From Promethearchaeia archaeon (GTDB lineage Archaea; Asgardarchaeota; Lokiarchaeia; Sigyniarchaeales; SOKP01): a stretch of 64,000 nucleotides of DNA. How positions within the stretch are numbered: the stretch's first letter is position 1; each line of letters opens with the position of its first letter. The DNA is taken from NCBI GenBank assembly GCA_029856105.1, contig JAHQWH010000015.1, positions 128,001 to 192,000 on the forward strand, written 5' to 3'. The notes under the pieces were generated by a model. It was not told the DNA's origin and made no database searches. It was given only the letters and a program-made list of their open reading frames with translations. Of the stretch, positions 225 through 50,785 are shown in pieces. A program made the translations under genes and the position numbers.

Positions 225-596
225 ATGGCTGAAATTTCAAAAGAAGCGAAAATTGTATTATTGATAAATATTATTTCTTCTTTTATCTTTGCTTTCTTTT
301 TTTTAATAATTCCAGAAATTTATGCGGATTGGACTAACGAGGCCTATTTTTCTCCTATTTGTTGGCGACAACTAGGAGGAACACTTCTATTATTTGGTAT
401 ATTTGGCATAATCGCTTTAATGCGAAAAGAATGGGAGCAAGTAAGAATATTCTGGGAATTAGGAATTGCGTTCCTAATAGTCTTAGTTAGTATAGACATA
501 TGGGTCATGGCTTATGGCTTATTTGATTATACGGTAATTGTTGAAATTGTGTTAGTTGCAATTAATATCTTTTTCTACATAAGAGAAAGGCGATAG
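225..596 (+). CDS. Small integral membrane protein (about 4 TM helices), function unknown
   Basis: 123-aa ORF with four hydrophobic segments, followed by a T-rich tract. Confidence 0.75.
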   Translation: MAEISKEAKIVLLINIISSFIFAFFFLIIPEIYADWTNEAYFSPICWRQLGGTLLLFGIFGIIALMRKEWEQVRIFWELGIAFLIVLVSIDIWVMAYGLFDYTVIVEIVLVAINIFFYIRERR

Positions 597-714
597 AAAA
601 TCAAATTTCTAAAAACTCTAATTTTTTATTTTTTTTATTTTTTTAAAAACATATTAAATAGTTATATGTAAAATGTGTAGCGTCTATATAAAAAAAAAAG
701 AGTTTTATAACTTG

Positions 715-2664
715 CTATTCGTTAATCATGGCTAGGAACTCGTCTTCGGTAATGATCTTCGACCCTTGCCCTTGAGCTTTTACGTATTTGCTTGTTGGCT
801 CGGTGCTATTGGTGACCAGATACGATAGGTCTTTTACGATTCCACTTTTTGGAGTACCGCCGTTTTCCGACACCAGCTGGTTCGCTTCGTTTCGGGTCAT
901 GGTTTCGAGCTTTCCCGTAAAGCAGAAGGTAAGTCCATCCAATTTGTTGCTTCCCATTTTTATACTCCTTGTTTTAATTTTATTGGTTTTTAAAGTTTTA
1001 AGCATGTCAAAATATAAAGCGTGAAACTCGTTGCGAAACTGATTGGCAGTAATGTCGCCAAACAATTCTACTCTTGCCAAATCTTGTACCGTTGTTTTGT
1101 GAATCTTCTCTAACGTGTTGTATCCCGTCTTTACGACCTTTTCCACGAGAGTTTCTCCTACATTTTCGAGGTTGAATCCTCCGATAAACTTTGACAAAGA
1201 CACTTCTTTTACCGCAAACAAGTTATCTAGAGCTTTCTGAGCCGATTTCTCGCCCACTCGATCTAGTTTCGTAAGATCAGAAACCTTCAATTCGTACAAA
1301 TCTGAGATTTTTTGAACTCTTCCCGAATCGAACAATTGTTTTAGGATCAGTTCTCCGAAGTTTTTTACTCCGAGCCTTTTGATCCACATCGTTAACCTGT
1401 GATAAGCTCTTTTCGAGCAATCTTTATTAGGACAATATAATCGAGTTCCTTCGTTAATTAAAGGTGTCTTACAAGCGTTGCATGCGGTAGGAAATTCGAT
1501 CTTTCTAGCATTGGAAGGATTTTGAATAACTCTCTCGATCTTAGGTATGATATCGCCTCGTTTCGAGACTATGACCTTCGAACCGATCTTTAAGCCCAGT
1601 TCTTCAATTAAATTTGGATTGGCAAGGCTCGCTCTTTGAACAGTAGTGCCGGCTATTGATGTGGGTTCGATTATGGCTATTGGCGTGTAATTTGATCCGC
1701 TCTCGCTCCACTCCACTTCGATTACCGTAGATTCCACTTCTTCGGGGTCGAACTTGAACGCAATTTGTTTGGTCGGTCTCGCTCTTTTCATGTCTTCCAA
1801 GTCGATTTCTTTTCCCTTGATTACCAAACCGTCAATGTCGAAATTAAGCTGGTCTCGAATCGACGCCATTACTTCGTCCCGATAGTTGACGACTTCTTTC
1901 GTGGTTTTAAACATATGAGTGTCGACAACCTCGAATTGATAGTTCCTTAACCATTTTAGTTTCTCTAACTCGTTTTTAAATCTATCATCTGGGTTCTTAC
2001 TAATCGCGTCGTATACAATTATTGTTAGGTCTTCGCTACCTTTACCGTCTTTCCTTTTAGTTATACCGCTCGCCATATTTCTACAGTTTTTTGCATCGGG
2101 ATATTTTTTCTGGAAGATATCCATTTTTAAAATTATCTCCCCTCTGACCGCTCCCGTAAATTCTGGGTTAACTTCTGGCACGAAAGCAATCATTTTTCTT
2201 ACATTGTGAGAAATATCGTCTCCTATTAGACCGTCTCCGCGAGTCACTCCGTATTGGAACTTCCCTCTAAGATATTGAAGTTCTACGCTTATACCATCTA
2301 GCTTGAATTGAGTAATAAATTGAGAATACCCTATCTTTCGCGCCCATTTAGAAAACTCTGCGGGAGAGGTTACCTTTGCTTGAGAGTTCATAGGAATTAA
2401 GTGACGAATTTTATTGAGGTTCGCATCGAAGTCTGTCCCTACTTTAAAAAAAACTTCGTTGCTAGGATCGAGTTTCTTTAATTCATCCCAGAGCTTATCG
2501 AACTCCGCATCGCTAATCTCTGATTGCGAGTTGTAATAGAGGTGCTGGTGATATTCTACCTGTGCTTGAAGTTCTTTTACGCGATCAGATTTTGGCATTA
2601 ATGGGGATTTAGAACTTTTTTCTCCTGAAGAGGCGGACTCGAACAATTTTAACTGTTTAGCCAA
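715..2664 (-). CDS. ligA: NAD-dependent DNA ligase (bacterial LigA type)
   Basis: YYxxxSEISDAEFD domain Ia, KLDG adenylation motif, TRGDG, RGE, DGLVIK, AFKF, OB fold (RASLAN, GDIIPKI), C4 Zn finger (CNAC...CPNKDC), HhH repeats, C-terminal BRCT (TFCFTGKL). TTG start. Confidence 0.95.
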   Translation of the reverse strand: MAKQLKLFESASSGEKSSKSPLMPKSDRVKELQAQVEYHQHLYYNSQSEISDAEFDKLWDELKKLDPSNEVFFKVGTDFDANLNKIRHLIPMNSQAKVTSPAEFSKWARKIGYSQFITQFKLDGISVELQYLRGKFQYGVTRGDGLIGDDISHNVRKMIAFVPEVNPEFTGAVRGEIILKMDIFQKKYPDAKNCRNMASGITKRKDGKGSEDLTIIVYDAISKNPDDRFKNELEKLKWLRNYQFEVVDTHMFKTTKEVVNYRDEVMASIRDQLNFDIDGLVIKGKEIDLEDMKRARPTKQIAFKFDPEEVESTVIEVEWSESGSNYTPIAIIEPTSIAGTTVQRASLANPNLIEELGLKIGSKVIVSKRGDIIPKIERVIQNPSNARKIEFPTACNACKTPLINEGTRLYCPNKDCSKRAYHRLTMWIKRLGVKNFGELILKQLFDSGRVQKISDLYELKVSDLTKLDRVGEKSAQKALDNLFAVKEVSLSKFIGGFNLENVGETLVEKVVKTGYNTLEKIHKTTVQDLARVELFGDITANQFRNEFHALYFDMLKTLKTNKIKTRSIKMGSNKLDGLTFCFTGKLETMTRNEANQLVSENGGTPKSGIVKDLSYLVTNSTEPTSKYVKAQGQGSKIITEDEFLAMINE

Positions 2665-39160: not shown

Positions 39161-40022
39161 CATGTATATTAATGAGAACTCAAAAGTAATCGTTCAAGGC
39201 ATGACGGGAAAACAAGGGATGTTTCACACTCAAATTATGCTTAATTATGGTACTAAAATTGTTGCTGGAGTTACACCTGGAAAGGGAGGTCAACAAGTAC
39301 ATGATATTCCAGTTTTTAACAAGATGAAAGAAGCAATTCAAGAAACAGGCGCAGACACGAGCATTATTTTTGTTCCTGCACGATTCATTTTAAGCGCAGC
39401 TATGGAAAGTTTAAATGCTGGAATCAACATGACATGCATTATAACCGAGAATGTGCCTGTTTTTGATATGATTCAACTTGTAGAGAAAGCTAAAGAAAAA
39501 GGATTATTTTTAATTGGTCCGAATTGCCCTGGAATGCTAATCCCCGATAAAATCAAATTGGGGATAATGCCAAACAACATGTGTCATTACGGTGATGTCG
39601 CAGTAATCTCTAAAAGTGGAACATTATCTTACGAAATAACAAAAGCTATTGGGAATAGTGATATCGGAGTTTCTGCATACATAGGTATAGGTGGAGATCC
39701 TGTGAGAGGAACTACTATGCAAGAAGCTGTAGCTTATTATTCAGAAGATCCAAAGACTAAAATAATCGTCCTTATAGGAGAAATTGGAAGCGACGAGGAG
39801 GAAAAAACTGCAGAGCTTATTAAGTACAATGTTTCTAAACCAGTTATAGCCTATATTGCTGGAAAAAGCGCTCCAGAAGGGAAAAGAATGGGCCATGCTG
39901 GTGCCATAATTTCTGGGGATATTGGAACTGCAAAAGGGAAAATTAAAGCTTTGAAAGACTCAGGAGTTTTAATTGCTAATACTCCTTGGGAGGTTCCTCA
40001 AGTGATTAAAGAAATATTATAA
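39153..40022 (+). CDS. sucD: Succinyl-CoA synthetase alpha subunit
   Basis: VQGMTGKQG, GVTPGKGG, IGPNCPG, SKSGTLSYE, GIGGDP, MGHAGAII (phospho-His). Confidence 0.93.
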   Translation: MNSMYINENSKVIVQGMTGKQGMFHTQIMLNYGTKIVAGVTPGKGGQQVHDIPVFNKMKEAIQETGADTSIIFVPARFILSAAMESLNAGINMTCIITENVPVFDMIQLVEKAKEKGLFLIGPNCPGMLIPDKIKLGIMPNNMCHYGDVAVISKSGTLSYEITKAIGNSDIGVSAYIGIGGDPVRGTTMQEAVAYYSEDPKTKIIVLIGEIGSDEEEKTAELIKYNVSKPVIAYIAGKSAPEGKRMGHAGAIISGDIGTAKGKIKALKDSGVLIANTPWEVPQVIKEIL

Positions 40023-43542: not shown

Positions 43543-44736
43543 ATGGATAATATTATTGAAAATGCGAAAATCCACTTTGGGAAACTTATCAAAGAGCAGT
43601 TAGAAAGAGTAGAACGAATGAAAAAAGCCGGAGATTGGGTTGATTACACATCGATAAAACCAATTATCATCGGACTCGTTGGGGGCGATGGTATCGGACC
43701 ATTTATTACAAAACACGCGCAAGCCGTACTGGAATTCTTGTTAAAAGAAGAGAGAGAGAATGGGAGCGTTGAGCTTCGAGTAATTGACGGACTAACAATT
43801 GAAAACAGAGCAAAAGTAATGAAAGCGATCCCTGACGACGTGTTAGTAGAAATAAAAAAGTGTCATGTGTTATTAAAGGGGCCCACTACAACACCAAGAA
43901 AAGGGGATAAATGGCCAAACATCGAAAGTGCTAATGTAACCATGCGTCGTGAGTTGGATCTATTTGCAAACGTTCGTCCAGTTAAAGTACCTGAAAAAAA
44001 TATCGATTGGATGTTTTTCAGAGAAAATACTGAGGGAGCTTATGTATTAGGTTCTAAAGGTATAAGTATCTCAGATGATTTAGCCTTTGATTTTAAGGTT
44101 ATTACAACGCAAGGAGCAGATAGGATTATCAGACTAGCCTTTGATTACGCTAAAAAGAACAATATTAACAAAGTTACAGTAGTTACTAAAGCAAACGTTG
44201 TAAAAGCTACTGATGGGAAATTTCTTGCTATAGCAGAGGAAGTGGCAAAAGATTATCCCGAAGTAGAATGGGACGATTGGTATATCGACATTATGACGGC
44301 TAAGCTAGTAGATCCAGCAAGACAAAGCCAATTTAGAGTATTTGTTGCTCCGAACCTTTATGGGGATATCATTACTGACGAAGCCGCTCAGATTCAAGGA
44401 GGCGTTGGAACTGCGGGCTCTGCGAACATTGGAAAACAATATTCTATGTTTGAAGCGATTCACGGTTCAGCCCCCCGTATGGTAGAAGATGGTAGGGCAC
44501 AATACGCTGATCCTTCAAGTATTATCAAAGCAGCGGCTTTACTTATGAACCATATAGGATTTGTTGAAAAAGCGAAAAAGCTCGAAATGGCACTTGAGAT
44601 ATGTGCAACGCTAGAAAAGAAAATAACAATTACTGGCCGAAACGACGGAGCTACTGGCGAAGAGTTCGCAAAGTATATCATGGATACACTTACAGATCCA
44701 CAATTAGAAGAACATTTTAAAGAATATAGTAAATAA
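43543..44736 (+). CDS. icd: Isocitrate dehydrogenase (isocitrate/isopropylmalate dehydrogenase family)
   Basis: GDGIGP, KGPTTTP, SANVTMRRELDLFANVRP (IDH-type SxN), RENTEG, NLYGDIITDEAA, FEAIHGSAP; TCA gene context. Confidence 0.8.
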   Translation: MDNIIENAKIHFGKLIKEQLERVERMKKAGDWVDYTSIKPIIIGLVGGDGIGPFITKHAQAVLEFLLKEERENGSVELRVIDGLTIENRAKVMKAIPDDVLVEIKKCHVLLKGPTTTPRKGDKWPNIESANVTMRRELDLFANVRPVKVPEKNIDWMFFRENTEGAYVLGSKGISISDDLAFDFKVITTQGADRIIRLAFDYAKKNNINKVTVVTKANVVKATDGKFLAIAEEVAKDYPEVEWDDWYIDIMTAKLVDPARQSQFRVFVAPNLYGDIITDEAAQIQGGVGTAGSANIGKQYSMFEAIHGSAPRMVEDGRAQYADPSSIIKAAALLMNHIGFVEKAKKLEMALEICATLEKKITITGRNDGATGEEFAKYIMDTLTDPQLEEHFKEYSK

Positions 44737-44794
44737 TATGAATTACTAAAAATATAACGATAACATTCAATTGAGTAAATTTTAACTTTTAATC

Positions 44795-44813
44795 TTTTTA
44801 TTTTTTTTTTTTT
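44795..44813 (+). terminator. Oligo-T terminator after aclBA-icd
   Basis: T13 run at 44801-44813, about 65 nt after the icd stop. Confidence 0.55.
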
Positions 44814-44820
44814 AAAAAGT

Positions 44821-45304
44821 CCGATCCTTCCACCTGACCTTATTATAGAGAAATGTGATTCGCGTGATCACTCCTTTAGCAAGGAAATCAATAATCACAT
44901 TATGAAAATCCTAGAGACGTTTGGAATAGATAATCTTGGAAGTATTGTCGAATATGATTATGATCCATACACCGCATGGTGGGCCAGTCGCATTATCATA
45001 ACTGGTGGTGCATCGAACATCCTTGGTTTGAGGTCCTTGCTCATTAGAGAGCTAGCTAAAAAGACTTACTGGTTGTGAAAAAGCACCCTCATGTCCTTTA
45101 GTGGATGTAAGTTTCAGAGACATCGCCTTTACAATACGTAATGTCCCTCTCGAAGATACACCTGGAACATGGTTGGGAGCATCGATAGAATCCAGCCTTA
45201 AAACATTCAAAGAGTGTTTTGTATCAAAAGAGATGTATTCAAATAATACGGATATAATTTTCACATTACACCATGAAAAAATGTGGACATCTATACTCAA
45301 ATAA
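44821..45304 (+). pseudogene. 5'-truncated, frameshifted actin-family (Asgard actin/Arp-like) gene remnant
   Basis: Frame from 44821 gives ...WASRIIITGGASNILGLRSLLIRELAK; after a +1 shift in the A5 run 45058-45062 it continues RLTGC...GTWLGASIESSLKTFKECFVSKEMY. These align with actin [24 protein letters not shown] and [25 protein letters not shown]. Confidence 0.75.
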
Positions 45305-45312
45305 GAAGGATT

Positions 45313-46302
45313 TTATTCGATGTATATATCTCTATTTTTTAAATTCTCTAAAACATAATTTTCTTTATCATTGAGAATGGGATTATTTTTTAAATCTAAA
45401 TCCTCAAGTAATTCAAGTTTAAGCAAAGATTCAGGTAAATTGGAGATTTTATTATTAAATAGATATAATCGAATTAGAGATTTAAGGTTGCCGATTGATT
45501 CAGGTAAAGTAGTTAACTCATTTTCCATCAAATCTAAAATTTCAAGATATGCAAAATTTCCTATGGATTTTGGAAGGATCGTCAATTTATTCTTTTTTAA
45601 ACCCAAATATGTTAATTGGGAAAGATCTCCTATAGAATCTGGAATATTAGTTAATTGATTACCCGATAAATCTAAAAAATTAAGAACCTTGAGTTTATTT
45701 ATTGATTCTGGAATTTCTGTCAAATTACTATCTACGAAACTTAATCCAACTAGATTTTTAATCGCCAATAAAGATTCAGGAAAAGCGGATAAATTGCTAT
45801 TACTGAAATCTAAATGAAATTCTGACAAATTTTTCATTGATTCTGGAAAACATTCAAATTCTGTGTCAAAAAGCGCTAAAAATTCAAGAGAACTTAAGGA
45901 TCCTATTGATTCTGGAAGATTTTTTAGTGGGTTTCCATCAAGCAGTAATGAATCAAGATTTTTAAGCTTTCCTATAGAATTTGGAAGTGAAGTTATTTGG
46001 TTCTCTCTCAATTCGATTAATTCTAAAGATTTTAAGTTATCTAAACAATTTGGTAGATGAGTAAGTTGATTATGTGCTAAATACAAAAATTTTAGCGATT
46101 TAAGTTCACAAATAGAATCGGGAAGGGACTCCAACCGATTATAAGATAAATCAAGATATTCTAAATTATCAGAATCTTCTAAACACTTGAGATCTTCTAA
46201 ATTTGTTAACCCAATATTTCCTAATTGATAGCCTATATAGCCATCATGATCCTCCTTTAGGAAATACTTCTCTCCATTAACTTCAATAAAATTTCCTGTC
46301 AT
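45313..46302 (-). CDS. Leucine-rich repeat protein (23-aa LxxLxLxxNxLxxLPxSIGxL units)
   Basis: About 11 tandem LRRs. Confidence 0.92.
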   Translation of the reverse strand: MTGNFIEVNGEKYFLKEDHDGYIGYQLGNIGLTNLEDLKCLEDSDNLEYLDLSYNRLESLPDSICELKSLKFLYLAHNQLTHLPNCLDNLKSLELIELRENQITSLPNSIGKLKNLDSLLLDGNPLKNLPESIGSLSSLEFLALFDTEFECFPESMKNLSEFHLDFSNSNLSAFPESLLAIKNLVGLSFVDSNLTEIPESINKLKVLNFLDLSGNQLTNIPDSIGDLSQLTYLGLKKNKLTILPKSIGNFAYLEILDLMENELTTLPESIGNLKSLIRLYLFNNKISNLPESLLKLELLEDLDLKNNPILNDKENYVLENLKNRDIYIE

Positions 46303-46401
46303 ATAGCTCTCAATTAATTATTATTTGAAAAAAAAATTGAATTTTTTGATTCCATTCAAATCTAATGAATACTATAATTGTTGAATACTTAATAAAAATG
46401 C

Positions 46402-46547
46402 TTGTCATTCCCGTAATTTCTATTATTTTTTAATTTAAGATTTTATAATTTCGATGATAAAATACAATTAGAAATCCCAAATTAATTATTAAAAGAATGT
46501 AAAAAACATTATTAGAGTGATTTGTATATATGAAGAAAAAGAAAGTA
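46402..46547 (+). repeat. Diverged duplicate of the arcE upstream region and first codons
   Basis: TTGTCATTCCCGTAAT (46402-46417 = 49353-49368) plus an ~80-nt similar block ending ATGAAGAAAAAGAAAGT (46530) versus ATGAAGAAAAAGAGAGT (49448). Confidence 0.8.
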
Positions 46548-46565
46548 AAAATTGTTTTGTTCTTA

Positions 46566-47936
46566 TTATTTTGCTAAACCTAAATATTTTAAAGCTTTAT
46601 TCTTAATTCTCTCCATCGTGGGAGTATCGGTAGTTTCTTCTAGGTAGTTAATTGTAAGGGTTAATTTTCCAGCGACTGTTACTGCGGGAATAACCAGTTC
46701 GATGTACGGAGTACCTGAAGTTACAAATATAAAACGATCTAACTCTAATGATCCATATTTGGTAGGATAATCTAGAAGACCAAGATTGGTAATAGCCAGA
46801 ACAGGTAATTTAGGAATTTGCTTTTTTGCCCTCTTATTTGCTATATTCTTCTCATCATTGCAGTAAGTATGAATTTTTTCATATCTACTAAAATTTGAGG
46901 GAACAAGATTTCCAAAAAATGTAAATTGACGGGCATCTACCATAGATTGATCAACGATCTCTGTAATCGCAGCAAATTGAAATATTTTTTTAATATAGAG
47001 ATTTTCTTTTGCTTTATCATTGTAAATTTTAGCATTCTCCCAAAAACCTTTTTTTGGATTATATGAGAATTCAAGCTCAAATCCTGAAATATAAACTCCA
47101 AAATTTTCACCTATGGGTTTACTATAGCGCTTTCGTGTGTTAACAGGAACCATAATATTTCGTTTTCCTCCTTTAAATGGTCCTCGGATAGAATTACGCG
47201 CTGCTAGAAAAGCTGTATTAAGAGCTGAATTCACAGTTAATCCATGTTGCCTACAGTTGTCAACGAGATTTGATGTTTCTTCTTCACTTAATTCCACTGA
47301 GATGATATTAAAATTATAGTTGTCCAAAAATGCTCTGAAGATATTATCCTCATCCTCCTCGTCAAAAATGACTTTTGATTTTTGCCACTTTTTATTCAAA
47401 GTATTAATTGCGAACTTTATGGCTTTTCCAATTTTAATATCTATTGGAAAATTATCTGGAGTTGCTAAGGGTGGCTCTGGCATCTCTATTACTTTTCGAT
47501 CAGGATCACCAACGTACAAAAGGAGATCACGAGCTAAAATTGCCAAAGAGGTTCCATCACATATCACATGATGACAAATTATAAGAATTTCAGAAATTTC
47601 GTGTGATTGCAATAATACAAAACGAGCTAAAGGACCTGTAGCTAATTTAAAGCGAATTTTGTATTCATTCAAGAGTTCTCTATTCCAATCTTCATCTGAT
47701 GTTCGTTGAACTACTCTTAACGGATTTTCAAGAACTTTTTCATTTATATACCATGGTTCATTGTTTTCATCAAGATAAATTCGGGCTCCCACCAATGGAT
47801 GCTGTTGCCTTACTTTATTTAATGCAATTCTTAAATCATCTTCTGAGATAAATCCTTTGACTCGAGCGACTATAGATATAGTTTGATTAGGAGACCTAAA
47901 AAATCTCCTCTCAAAGGAGTTTAGTTTTCTTTTCAA
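46566..47936 (-). CDS. Condensation-domain / alcohol acyltransferase (PapA5/Atf-like) protein
   Basis: HHVICDG (HHxxxDG), HPLV, GPLAR, PVNTR, ITNLG. Confidence 0.85.
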   Translation of the reverse strand: MKRKLNSFERRFFRSPNQTISIVARVKGFISEDDLRIALNKVRQQHPLVGARIYLDENNEPWYINEKVLENPLRVVQRTSDEDWNRELLNEYKIRFKLATGPLARFVLLQSHEISEILIICHHVICDGTSLAILARDLLLYVGDPDRKVIEMPEPPLATPDNFPIDIKIGKAIKFAINTLNKKWQKSKVIFDEEDEDNIFRAFLDNYNFNIISVELSEEETSNLVDNCRQHGLTVNSALNTAFLAARNSIRGPFKGGKRNIMVPVNTRKRYSKPIGENFGVYISGFELEFSYNPKKGFWENAKIYNDKAKENLYIKKIFQFAAITEIVDQSMVDARQFTFFGNLVPSNFSRYEKIHTYCNDEKNIANKRAKKQIPKLPVLAITNLGLLDYPTKYGSLELDRFIFVTSGTPYIELVIPAVTVAGKLTLTINYLEETTDTPTMERIKNKALKYLGLAK

Positions 47937-47977
47937 TTTTTTATATTGCGTAATTTTTTACACCTCATATTTTATTC

Positions 47978-48081
47978 TTTCATTGATTCTGAACTTTCAG
48001 AAAAAGTGAAAGTCAAGATATAATAAATATTTTGAGTATAAAAATGTTTTCATTATTTGTGAAATTTCACATTTTGTAAAA
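47978..48081. promoter_or_regulatory. Two tandem pairs of 17-bp palindromic boxes TTTCA-N7-TGAAA
   Basis: Boxes at 47978-47994, 47995-48011, 48048-48064 and 48065-48081 in the divergent intergenic region. Confidence 0.7.
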
Positions 48082-48119
48082 AGCTTTTTATATTAGAAAA
48101 ACTATATTATCATTAAGAA

Positions 48120-49229
48120 ATGCCTACAAATAATAAGAATAATCACATTTACGACAAAAAGATCAGGAATTATGAAAAGGAAGTCATAAAATTCTTTGTA
48201 GAATACGGAAAAAATAAAAGATCTGATATTGAATCTCATATTCTTGCTTACATTTTATTGCGCGAAGGACAATGGTTAACTCAAGAAAACATTAGAGAAT
48301 TATCACTCATTTTTTATGAAACTGAATTTAAAAAAGGCATTTCACAGGGTTCTATATCCCAAATTCTAAATAATTTCGTAGAATATAGCGTTCTAAATAA
48401 AAGAAAACTTGAGACTAAAAAGAACGCTTTTGAATATTCAATGTCAGGAGCTTTTAATCAAGTAATGTCTTCTGCTATAGGATATGGAATAGAGGAGTTG
48501 GAGAAGTATATCTTGTTCTTGAAGAAAAAATTAGCCTCTTTGGAAAAAATTGAATATAAAAGTAATGAAGTTGAATTTCTAAGAGTTAGGCTAAATGAAA
48601 GAGTAAAGGAATTAATAGAATTCTTTATTTTTCATAAGGATCTCTATGAAGAAATATTCAAGATACCCAATAATAAAAAGAAAAATATTAGTAAACCAGA
48701 AGATCTAAGTGATTTTCAAATTAAGAAGTCTCTTAGAGAAATTGAAAGAGATATTATTGAGTTTATAATAAATTGTCCATTATTCAGGTTTGGAAAGATG
48801 AAAGGCGCTCATTACCCTATTATTGCTTATTTCTTTACTAGGAAGAGATTAACTCAAGAAAAACTAAAAGAACTTACAGGTTTCTCTGCTGGAATGGTTT
48901 CTGAAGGTTTAAATTATATGCTTCAGGAAGGGTACATAAATTTAGATAAAGTTAAAGGTATTAGAGTACGGTATTACGAATTAAATTCAATTGCCTATTA
49001 TAATTATCTACATCTATTCCGGATCGTCAAATCAAATTCTGAATTATTTACAAGGTTAGATGCTATAAGCAGTGAAATAAAAACAAAAAGAACTGAGCTA
49101 AAAGATATAAATGGATATCGCATTATAAATAAGCGAGTTAAACAATTTTTAAATGCAAAACCCGTGGTTGAGAAATTATTAATATCATTCAAAGATGCAA
49201 TGGAAAGGTTTAAACATAAACCACAATAA
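48120..49229 (+). CDS. Transcriptional regulator with two tandem winged-HTH (GbsR/MarR-like) domains
   Basis: Two homologous halves: IlAY..R..LTQE.(I/L)(R/K)EL...S.G.(I/V)S..LN. Confidence 0.7.
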   Translation: MPTNNKNNHIYDKKIRNYEKEVIKFFVEYGKNKRSDIESHILAYILLREGQWLTQENIRELSLIFYETEFKKGISQGSISQILNNFVEYSVLNKRKLETKKNAFEYSMSGAFNQVMSSAIGYGIEELEKYILFLKKKLASLEKIEYKSNEVEFLRVRLNERVKELIEFFIFHKDLYEEIFKIPNNKKKNISKPEDLSDFQIKKSLREIERDIIEFIINCPLFRFGKMKGAHYPIIAYFFTRKRLTQEKLKELTGFSAGMVSEGLNYMLQEGYINLDKVKGIRVRYYELNSIAYYNYLHLFRIVKSNSELFTRLDAISSEIKTKRTELKDINGYRIINKRVKQFLNAKPVVEKLLISFKDAMERFKHKPQ

Positions 49230-49447
49230 AAAAAGAAGGAAATATAAAGAATTAGTATTATGAGGGCAATCAAAATAATCAGTGAAATTAAGGATTAAGC
49301 GGGTCTATATAGTAGAAAAAACAATTTTTAAAATTCTTTTGATGATGGTGGGTTGTCATTCCCGTAATACTTTCAATAAATATTATTACAAATCCAAAAT
49401 TAATTATTATAATAATGTGAAAAACACTATAAGAATGGTTTGTATTT

Positions 49448-50785
49448 ATGAAGAAAAAGAGAGTTGTTATAATCGGAGCCTTAGGTATGGATTTTCACCT
49501 GTTTAACACCGTCTTCAAAGATAATGAAGAATACGAGGTAATTGCTTTTACTATTGCTGGAGAGCAGAATGTAGGCACAATTGAAGGGGCGGAAAGGAAA
49601 TATCCGGCGGAATTAGCAGGTAAACTATATCCAAAAGGCATTCCAATGCTTCCCGAAGAACACATTGAAGAAATAATTAAACTTCATCAAATAGATGAGG
49701 TGGTGTTTGCATATTCTGATGTTTCGCACGAAGAATTAATGCATAAAGCATCTAGAGCGCTATCTGCTGGAGCTAACTATCGTTTGATATCGGGAAAATT
49801 CACCCAAATTAAATCTAAAAAACCCGTTGTAGCAATATGTGCTGTTAGAACTGGATGTGGTAAAAGCCAAGTTTCTAGAGCAACTTATAGGTATTTAATG
49901 AGCAAAGGTTATAAAGTTGTAGCAGTAAGAGAACCAATGCCTTATGGAGATTTGATAAAACAAAATGTTATGCGTTTTGAGAAGTACGAAGATTTAGATA
50001 AGTTTGATTGCACGATCGAGGAGCGGGAAGAGTACGAACCTTACATTGAACAGGGACTTGTGATTTATTCAGGAGTAGATTACGAAAAAATTGTTAGGGA
50101 AGCAGAAAAAGAAGCGGATGTAATCATCTTTGACGGTGGAAACAACGAGCTATCGTTTTATGTTCCAGATTTACTTTTCATCGTAGTAGACCCATTAAGA
50201 CCGGGACACGAGATGAAATATCATCCCGGCGAAGTAAACGCCCGATCTGCCGATGCGTTCGTCATTAATAAAATGAATAACGCTAAACCAGAAGATGTGA
50301 AAATCGTTGAGAATAATTTAAACGAATTAAATCCTGACGCAACAAAAATATATACAAATTCGGTTGTTACTATCGAAGGTAATCCTGATTTAAAGGGCAA
50401 AAAAGTAATTGTTGTAGAAGATGGGCCAACTTTAACGCATGGTAGTATGTCGTACGGCGCGGGATTTGTTGCGGCAACCAATAGTGGAGCTATAATTATA
50501 GATCCAAAACCTTATGTAACAGGTACTATGAAAAAAGTATTTGAAGAATTTCCACAGATCACACAGATAGTTCCAGCCATGGGATATAACGACCAACAGA
50601 TTAAAGACATGGAAGAAACTCTAAATAAAGCTGAATGCGAAATTATAATTGATGGCAGCCCTATTGATCTTGAAAAATTAATTAATAGCAATAAACCTAT
50701 CATCAGAGTCTCTTATGATATTGAACCTGTCAAAAGTCCAACGATAGAAGAAGTCTTAGATAAATTTATTGAAAAATTTTTATAA
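49448..50785 (+). CDS. arcE: Arginine synthetase (ArcE; family formerly annotated GTPase / cyclic 2,3-diphosphoglycerate synthetase-like)
   Basis: DFH.FN, YP.ELAG.LYP.GIP, FAYSDVSH, AVRTGCGKSQ P-loop, PMPYGDL, CTIEEREEYEP, DGGNN, HPGE.N, VEDGPTLTHG, PAMGY; OTC and carbamate kinase nearby. Confidence 0.75.
   Translation: MKKKRVVIIGALGMDFHLFNTVFKDNEEYEVIAFTIAGEQNVGTIEGAERKYPAELAGKLYPKGIPMLPEEHIEEIIKLHQIDEVVFAYSDVSHEELMHKASRALSAGANYRLISGKFTQIKSKKPVVAICAVRTGCGKSQVSRATYRYLMSKGYKVVAVREPMPYGDLIKQNVMRFEKYEDLDKFDCTIEEREEYEPYIEQGLVIYSGVDYEKIVREAEKEADVIIFDGGNNELSFYVPDLLFIVVDPLRPGHEMKYHPGEVNARSADAFVINKMNNAKPEDVKIVENNLNELNPDATKIYTNSVVTIEGNPDLKGKKVIVVEDGPTLTHGSMSYGAGFVAATNSGAIIIDPKPYVTGTMKKVFEEFPQITQIVPAMGYNDQQIKDMEETLNKAECEIIIDGSPIDLEKLINSNKPIIRVSYDIEPVKSPTIEEVLDKFIEKFL

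Follow-up and report, generated by a model that had tools for sequence, protein, structure and literature searches.

The window analysed here, the whole of a 64,000 nt stretch of contig JAHQWH010000015.1, comes from a metagenome-assembled Lokiarchaeia genome of 3.66 Mb that lies in 238 contigs and is 92% complete with 6% estimated contamination. The window contains icd, an intact isocitrate/isopropylmalate dehydrogenase gene, and downstream of it lie, in order, a short piece of genus backbone, one solo insertion-sequence (IS) terminal inverted repeat, the 3′ part of a broken actin-related gene, an intact and convergent LRR gene, and the first of two direct repeat copies of the promoter and first codons of an arcE-like gene, whose true start is the second copy (Table 1). 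The GC content of positions 44800-45250 is 0.38-0.41, as in the flanking genes and other coding DNA, and true local spacers have values of 0.18-0.29. There is no tRNA gene between positions 40000 and 56000.

Table 1. Features of the icd to arcE-like interval and its edges (window positions).
Feature	Position	Strand	Basis and remarks
icd, intact isocitrate/isopropylmalate dehydrogenase gene (left neighbour)	43543..44736	+	Pfam Iso_dh, 227 bits; 92-95% identical to congeners
Short backbone segment	44742..44763	+	22/22 nt identical to G017 (L061 3107-3128); 20/21 to G042 (L062 10576-10596)
Left terminal inverted repeat (solo arm) of an IS of ~1.85 kb	~44770..44808	+	Motif match to full copies; the inner T-run is the poly-T tract
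Probable actin-related pseudogene, piece 1	44817..45053	+	DNA and protein alignment; orthologue codons 222-300, including adenosine motif IIITGGAS
Site of 14-bp deletion	45053..45054	+	Relative to intact orthologues; removes 4 2/3 codons, frame shift +1
Probable actin-related pseudogene, piece 2	45054..45304	+	Frame +1; orthologue codons ~306-387 and native stop TAA at 45302-45304
Intact LRR gene, 329 aa	45313..46302	-	Pfam LRR_14, 130.9 bits; LRR_8, 98.8 bits; convergent with the remnant
Direct repeat copy A (duplicate of the arcE-like gene's promoter and first codons)	46460..46546	+	85% identical to 49378-49464
Direct repeat copy B (where the arcE-like gene, 49448-50785, truly starts)	49378..49464	+	Right edge of the variable interval

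The actin-related remnant (plus strand, 44817-45304) consists of about 160 codons that are split over two reading frames. Frame 1 is open from 44821 to 45075 and terminates at a TGA (45076-45078), and the open stretch of frame +1 spans 45056-45301 and is closed by a TAA (45302-45304). The 160-aa peptide obtained by joining the two (P0001) matches Pfam family Actin (PF00022) with 33 bits (cut-off 27, E 3.3e-8) over profile positions 326-400 of 410, and piece 2 by itself scores 20.5 bits over positions 368-400. No other Pfam family matches P0001 even at E values up to 10. A preliminary description of this DNA, made from its letters alone, had recognised some 160 actin-family codons in two frames and placed them with actin and the actin-related proteins (Arps) rather than with MreB or Hsp70 (DnaK); both points are borne out, as the frame-repaired peptide gives a significant actin match and fits neither these families nor FtsA or the sugar kinases better. 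The best matches among PDB sequences are Arp4, Arp1 and actins, with Arp4 the top single sequence, and HMMER aligns IIITGGASNILGL with the adenosine loop and TWLGASIESSLKTFKECFVSKEMY with the C-terminal helix region of Arp4 and actin, just as had been proposed for these two motifs. The adenosine motif IIITGGAS, which holds the equivalents of actin G301-G302, and the segment WLGASI...F...VSKxxY, by which the chain returns to subdomain 1 at the C-terminus, both align to actin and Arp4. The source genome has five intact actin-family genes that score 169-442 bits against Pfam Actin, two of them Lokiactin-like (427-442 bits); none is more than 41% identical to the remnant, which is therefore not a recent copy of any of them.

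Intact orthologues of 377-389 aa are present in related Promethearchaeota and in metagenomes. The remnant protein is 91% identical to the closest of these (P0008) and 84% identical to P0009 in alignments that run from their residue 222 to the end, and it is colinear with both through the last residue. A congener, G006, has a 389-aa open gene that is 64% identical to the remnant over residues 223-385. The agreement extends to the DNA: positions 44817-45362, which hold the remnant plus the beginning of the LRR gene, are 91.7% identical to positions 782-1342 of orthologue contig L024, and positions 44817-46227 are 91.3% identical to positions 1348-2777 of contig L026, past the stop codon and well into the LRR gene. 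An 82-aa antisense ORF (45052-45300, minus strand) overlaps the remnant and is also open (115 aa) in L026; by its sequence it would seem to shadow the conserved sense frame and not to be a gene.

Three-way DNA alignment of the window with L024 and L026 maps two lesions. Homology begins at 44817, which corresponds to codon 222, and codons 1-221 are absent, so that the final two-fifths of the gene are left; the loss of the N-terminal part had been noted before, with the start of the fragment misplaced at 44821. The other lesion is a 14-bp stretch, TTTGAAGGAAACCC, that is present in both orthologues and absent between 45053 and 45054, where its placement is unambiguous. Its deletion shifts the reading frame by +1, with the result that frame 1 runs on into the TGA at 45076-45078. 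The frame break had been put down to one extra A in the run at 45058-45062, but this run (GCTAAAAAGA) is the same in the remnant and in the intact orthologues, and the true lesion lies five bases upstream of it. The locus thus has the makeup of a unitary pseudogene: longer intact orthologues exist elsewhere, and the local copy is frame-disrupted, has no start and retains its orthologous LRR neighbour. Judged from these alignments, the remnant is very probably the non-functional pseudogene of an actin-related gene of about 387 codons (a ~387-aa product) that was inactivated by a 5′ truncation and the 14-bp deletion.

The intact orthologues differ from one another by 67.6 synonymous and 112.4 non-synonymous changes over 387 codons, and their dN/dS of 0.39 indicates that the gene is maintained under purifying selection. 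The remnant has about 22 substitutions relative to L024 (dS 0.088), of which 4 non-synonymous and 2 synonymous changes are private to the remnant and 5 and 3, respectively, are private to L024. The corresponding dN/dS is 0.42, against 0.39-0.40 for intact pairs, a comparison that has no power on relaxed constraint with only six remnant-specific changes. Since dS is so low and the only in-frame stops in the remnant are those caused by the frameshift, the break appears to be recent. The earlier characterisation of the fragment as a decaying, divergent Asgard paralogue was right in that it is a broken remnant; "decaying" overstates the condition of a sequence that is still 91% identical to an intact orthologue and has stops only from the shifted frame.

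Some features of the assembly could be taken to mean that the organism carries an intact gene and that the contig is chimeric at the T-run and/or has dropped 14 bases. The genome is a fragmented metagenome-assembled one with 238 contigs and 6% contamination, the junction falls at a run of 13 Ts beside a repeated IS end, and a scan of JGI metagenome contigs turned up no independent assembly with the same deletion junction, its one hit being an unrelated 21-mer matched by chance. Such an artefact is nonetheless improbable. The 14-bp loss lies in unique, non-homopolymer sequence, which is atypical of read or polishing errors, and both sides of the junction run colinearly into authentic neighbours, namely icd to the left and, to the right, the LRR gene with the arcE repeat. 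Moreover, a path that enters the IS repeat at the outer edge and leaves it at the inner one should continue into the IS interior in any copy, so that a repeat-mediated misjoin would not put the 3′ part of the gene there. Nor is the missing 5′ half on any other contig of the 92%-complete assembly when this is searched by tblastn and blastn with the closest orthologue. That same completeness value, together with the occurrence of the family on short contigs of 3-7 kb in reference genomes, means that an intact copy could have been missed; the remnant would then be a duplicated 3′ piece, the intact gene would lie in the unassembled ~8% of the genome, and there would have been no gene loss. We consider this a slim prospect, because the orthologous LRR neighbour is still in place and matches L026 at the same level, ~91% identity, which marks the original locus and not a dispersed copy. 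In addition, no second copy of the family was traced in the source assembly by protein or DNA searches, and the five intact actin homologues of the genome are, at 41% identity or less, distant from the remnant.

Continued function of the remnant is the least probable of these alternatives, and we regard it as very improbable indeed. Both frames are open, an ATG is available at 44902 and the sequence is not yet degraded, so the locus might be imagined to make a truncated C-terminal protein by programmed +1 frameshifting near the A-run, or else two peptides of 58 and 67 aa. However, the offset between the frames is accounted for by a deletion that none of the relatives has; they read straight through. 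None of them exists as a C-terminal protein on its own with a separate start, since the short entries among them are cut off by contig ends. Positions 44600-46600 contain no match to a known RNA family that might serve as an RNA element. Subdomains 1 and 2 are also missing from the fragment, as are the two phosphate loops, and the nucleotide cleft cannot form without them. As the pseudogene that it most probably is, the remnant should yield no functional product and has no likely function of its own; it is an ordinary pseudogene, and annotation should label the stretch as such and not as two small ORFs or as empty spacer.

The fragment had been said to begin right after the poly-T tract of icd. 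The T-run does adjoin the fragment, but it is the inner part of an IS inverted repeat and does not belong to icd; what resembles an icd terminator is really an IS end. In the congeners G005 and G008, this end motif of about 40 nt is part of 45-53-nt inverted arms (84-87% complementary) around a ~1.77-kb segment that encodes a 488-aa DDE transposase (PF01609 DDE_Tnp_1, 29.7 bits, cut-off 23). These full copies (L066 598-2451 in G005:C134 and L067 568-2444 in G008:C17) have the terminal inverted repeats flanking a transposase, and the multicopy occurrence, of a genuine IS; the window has one arm only. The end motif is present in many copies, in most genomes of the genus, and as a single solo arm in the source assembly, where there is no match to the IS transposase, which may be unassembled. 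Alignment with the full copies shows that the window retains the outer ~40 nt of one arm and that codon 222 of the actin-related gene stands in place of the expected IS interior. No inverted partner arm rises above the shuffle background in the window, and the idea that the remnant and the LRR gene lie inside a composite or MITE-like unit was rejected on that ground.

Truncations and deletions linked to ISs of the DDE_Tnp_1 (IS4-like) kind in prokaryotes are comparable to this arrangement in that an IS end lies exactly at the truncation point within a variable interval. They differ in that a single IS end, with some 40 nt, is all that is left here and that the gene fragment is on the inner side of it, so that neither simple insertion nor a classical adjacent deletion would explain the junction. 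One illegitimate deletion, extending from just inside the IS to the middle of the gene, probably produced it; this would have taken away the first 221 codons together with the start codon and the promoter, and would have left codon 222 abutting the inner edge of the solo IS repeat.

The surrounding DNA is highly changeable within the genus. Homology of the window with the close congeners G017, G042, G051 and G005 ends at 44742, beyond which these genomes have 1.8 to 8.5 kb of other DNA, and in G006 a condensation-domain gene follows icd directly. The short backbone segment that follows the end of this homology in the window (Table 1) is located further downstream in congeners, near the arcE-promoter repeat. 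The interval from icd to the arcE-like gene (44743-49464) differs in every congener examined (G017, G042, G051, G005 and G006), and a duplicate of the arcE promoter and start, 87-115 nt long, brackets an acyltransferase-regulator module in the window, G042 and G051. This interval is a variability hot spot. In G005 the last 57 nt of icd (window 44686-44742) are repeated with 96% identity about 1.15 kb downstream (L064 3755-3811, in G005:C149), a pattern that resembles the trace of an element once inserted at the 3′ end of icd.

The pairing of the actin-related gene with an LRR gene also occurs in the two closest intact loci, L026 and L024. The preliminary description had proposed full-length Asgard orthologues and their neighbours as a check; such orthologues do exist, and the closest of them share the LRR neighbour. 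In L024 the intact gene is preceded by the left part of repeat copy A (L024 4-38 corresponds to window 46460-46494), and from this it is suggested that the arp-LRR module of L024 occupies the same kind of position. The same 35-nt match had been considered as a sign of circular permutation of a cassette, an idea that was dropped because the match is the left part of the arcE-promoter repeat. There is no conserved neighbourhood past these closest relatives; the gene contexts differ in G006, P0006, P0007 and P0012.

The protein collection contains 17 intact or partial relatives that are 53-89% identical to the G006 orthologue (full-length members have 377-387 aa), and 16 of the 17 are precomputed as PF00022. 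The intact orthologues score 86-93 bits against Pfam Actin, within a family range of 70-93 bits. When a profile of 14 full-length members was run against 1.84 billion cluster representatives, nine proteins were found with E below 1e-30, and there is a gap in the scores of full-length proteins, with 268 bits or more above it and 95 bits or less below. Of the 400 Asgard genomes searched, only six yielded the family; all six belong to the class of the window's organism and five of them to its taxonomic family, and within the genus the search found the gene in the window's genome and in one of 41 other genomes. A quick IQ-TREE maximum likelihood search, restricted to the family and the other hits, gives the family as one clade (SH-aLRT 99) next to a sister ring of P0020-P0022 and G218:C5 (97), and the family and its sister ring together are set apart by a branch of 1.39 substitutions from the other hits, including the five homologues of the source genome. 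By these sequence comparisons the parent family is a small, sporadic and distinct long-branch clade of Loki-type Asgard archaea (Promethearchaeota). The suggestion that the fragment might mark an undescribed subfamily is in keeping with this: the tree separates the family from the genome's other homologues, and a full-text literature search gave no description of it.

A second decayed remnant of the family was seen in another genus (L037, in G276:C116, positions 277-819, minus strand). Of this copy only the C-terminal half is present, at 35% identity, and its frame is interrupted by five stops (two TGA, two TAG and one TAA); it is an independent and more decayed loss. The intact family gene in reference genomes (L027, L028, L029 and L030) is always on short contigs of 3.3-7 kb, and the bin of one of these is labelled as bacterial ("Deferrimicrobium"), that of another as "Odinarchaeota". 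Such consistently short contigs and odd binning suggest that the family sits in variable, hard-to-assemble and easily mis-binned regions.

Alignment of the family with the Lokiactin-type proteins of the source genome shows that a 47-residue segment, subdomain 2 with its D-loop, is absent; positions 35-39 of the family profile stand for actin residues 32-80. Both phosphate loops depart from the canonical patterns, D-x-G-x-G for loop 1 and D-x-G-x-G-x-T-H for loop 2, by substitutions that are conserved in the family. Loop 1 reads E-R-G-S-Y/F where the canonical sequence is D-N-G-S/T-G, and loop 2 reads D-I-G-Y-x-S/N-T-(L/I/F), for example D-I-G-Y-E/K-S-T, where it is canonically D-I-G-D-G-V-S/T-H. 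Like Lokiactin and eukaryotic actin, the family has the actin fold, the adenosine GG motif (G301-G302), equivalents of Q137, D154 and G156, and the segment W-x-G-x-S-I...F...V-S-K-x-x-Y, and within it G284 and G285 are invariant. Unlike them, besides the missing subdomain 2 and the remodelled loops, it has extra insertions, within subdomain 4 and ahead of the C-terminal (last) strand, and is only ~20% identical in sequence. An AlphaFold2 model of P0008 has pLDDT 70 and pTM 0.62, and in a Foldseek search of the PDB all its top matches are actins (E ~5e-15), with TM scores of only 0.45-0.50 and about 20% identity. The family profile likewise prefers actins (72 bits) to Arp4 (56 bits) among PDB sequences. 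Language-model features place P0008 nearest to clusters named Arp10, Arp7 and apicomplexan actin-like, which can be used as leads only. Several of the divergent Arps (Arp4, Arp7 and Arp10) share with the parent family non-canonical residues in the catalytic loops, and Arp4 is unlike it in being longer (about 490 aa) with insertions of its own; the likeness would seem to be at the level of a divergent actin-fold protein only.

The D-loop makes a longitudinal contact in F-actin. As the family has neither D-loop nor subdomain 2 and has non-canonical phosphate loops, we infer that the intact parent protein would have a non-polymerising, regulatory Arp-like role and would not form filaments. A wider interpretation, which we offer only tentatively, is that the intact genes are an undescribed clade, restricted to Lokiarchaeia, without subdomain 2 and with both phosphate loops remodelled, which is held under purifying selection and encodes an accessory, non-polymerising Arp-like regulator in fast-turnover islands where it has been repeatedly gained and lost, two independent decayed copies having been seen. 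If true, this would be a prokaryotic example of Arp-style functional divergence within the lineage closest to eukaryotes. The clade (~385 aa, without subdomain 2, with altered nucleotide loops and found only in Lokiarchaeia-type genomes) is worth adding to actin and Arp phylogenies and to biochemical surveys.

Asgard genomes are known to carry ARPs besides Lokiactin, and gains, losses and duplications have already been described as shaping them (Rodrigues-Oliveira et al. 2022; PMC9834061). Being an instance of these published dynamics, one further loss is not very surprising, and the remnant provides a concrete, datable case of the proposed gain and loss of Asgard ARPs. The parent family resembles such ARPs, for example the three that "Ca. 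Lokiarchaeum ossiferum" has besides Lokiactin (PMC9834061), in that its proteins are Pfam Actin members that occur beside a conserved Lokiactin; it would differ in forming a separate long-branch clade, as it does in the tree of the present hits, and it scores 70-93 bits against Pfam Actin versus 169-442 for the other homologues of the source genome. A full-text literature search found no paper that describes an Asgard actin clade without subdomain 2, and one may exist elsewhere. Two of the five intact homologues in the source genome, both of the Lokiactin type (G000:C74:18410-19522, 442 bits against Pfam Actin, and G000:C160:7906-9018, 427 bits), are closely related and form sister tips in the tree; with an estimated contamination of 6%, either true paralogy or the joint binning of two strains could account for them.
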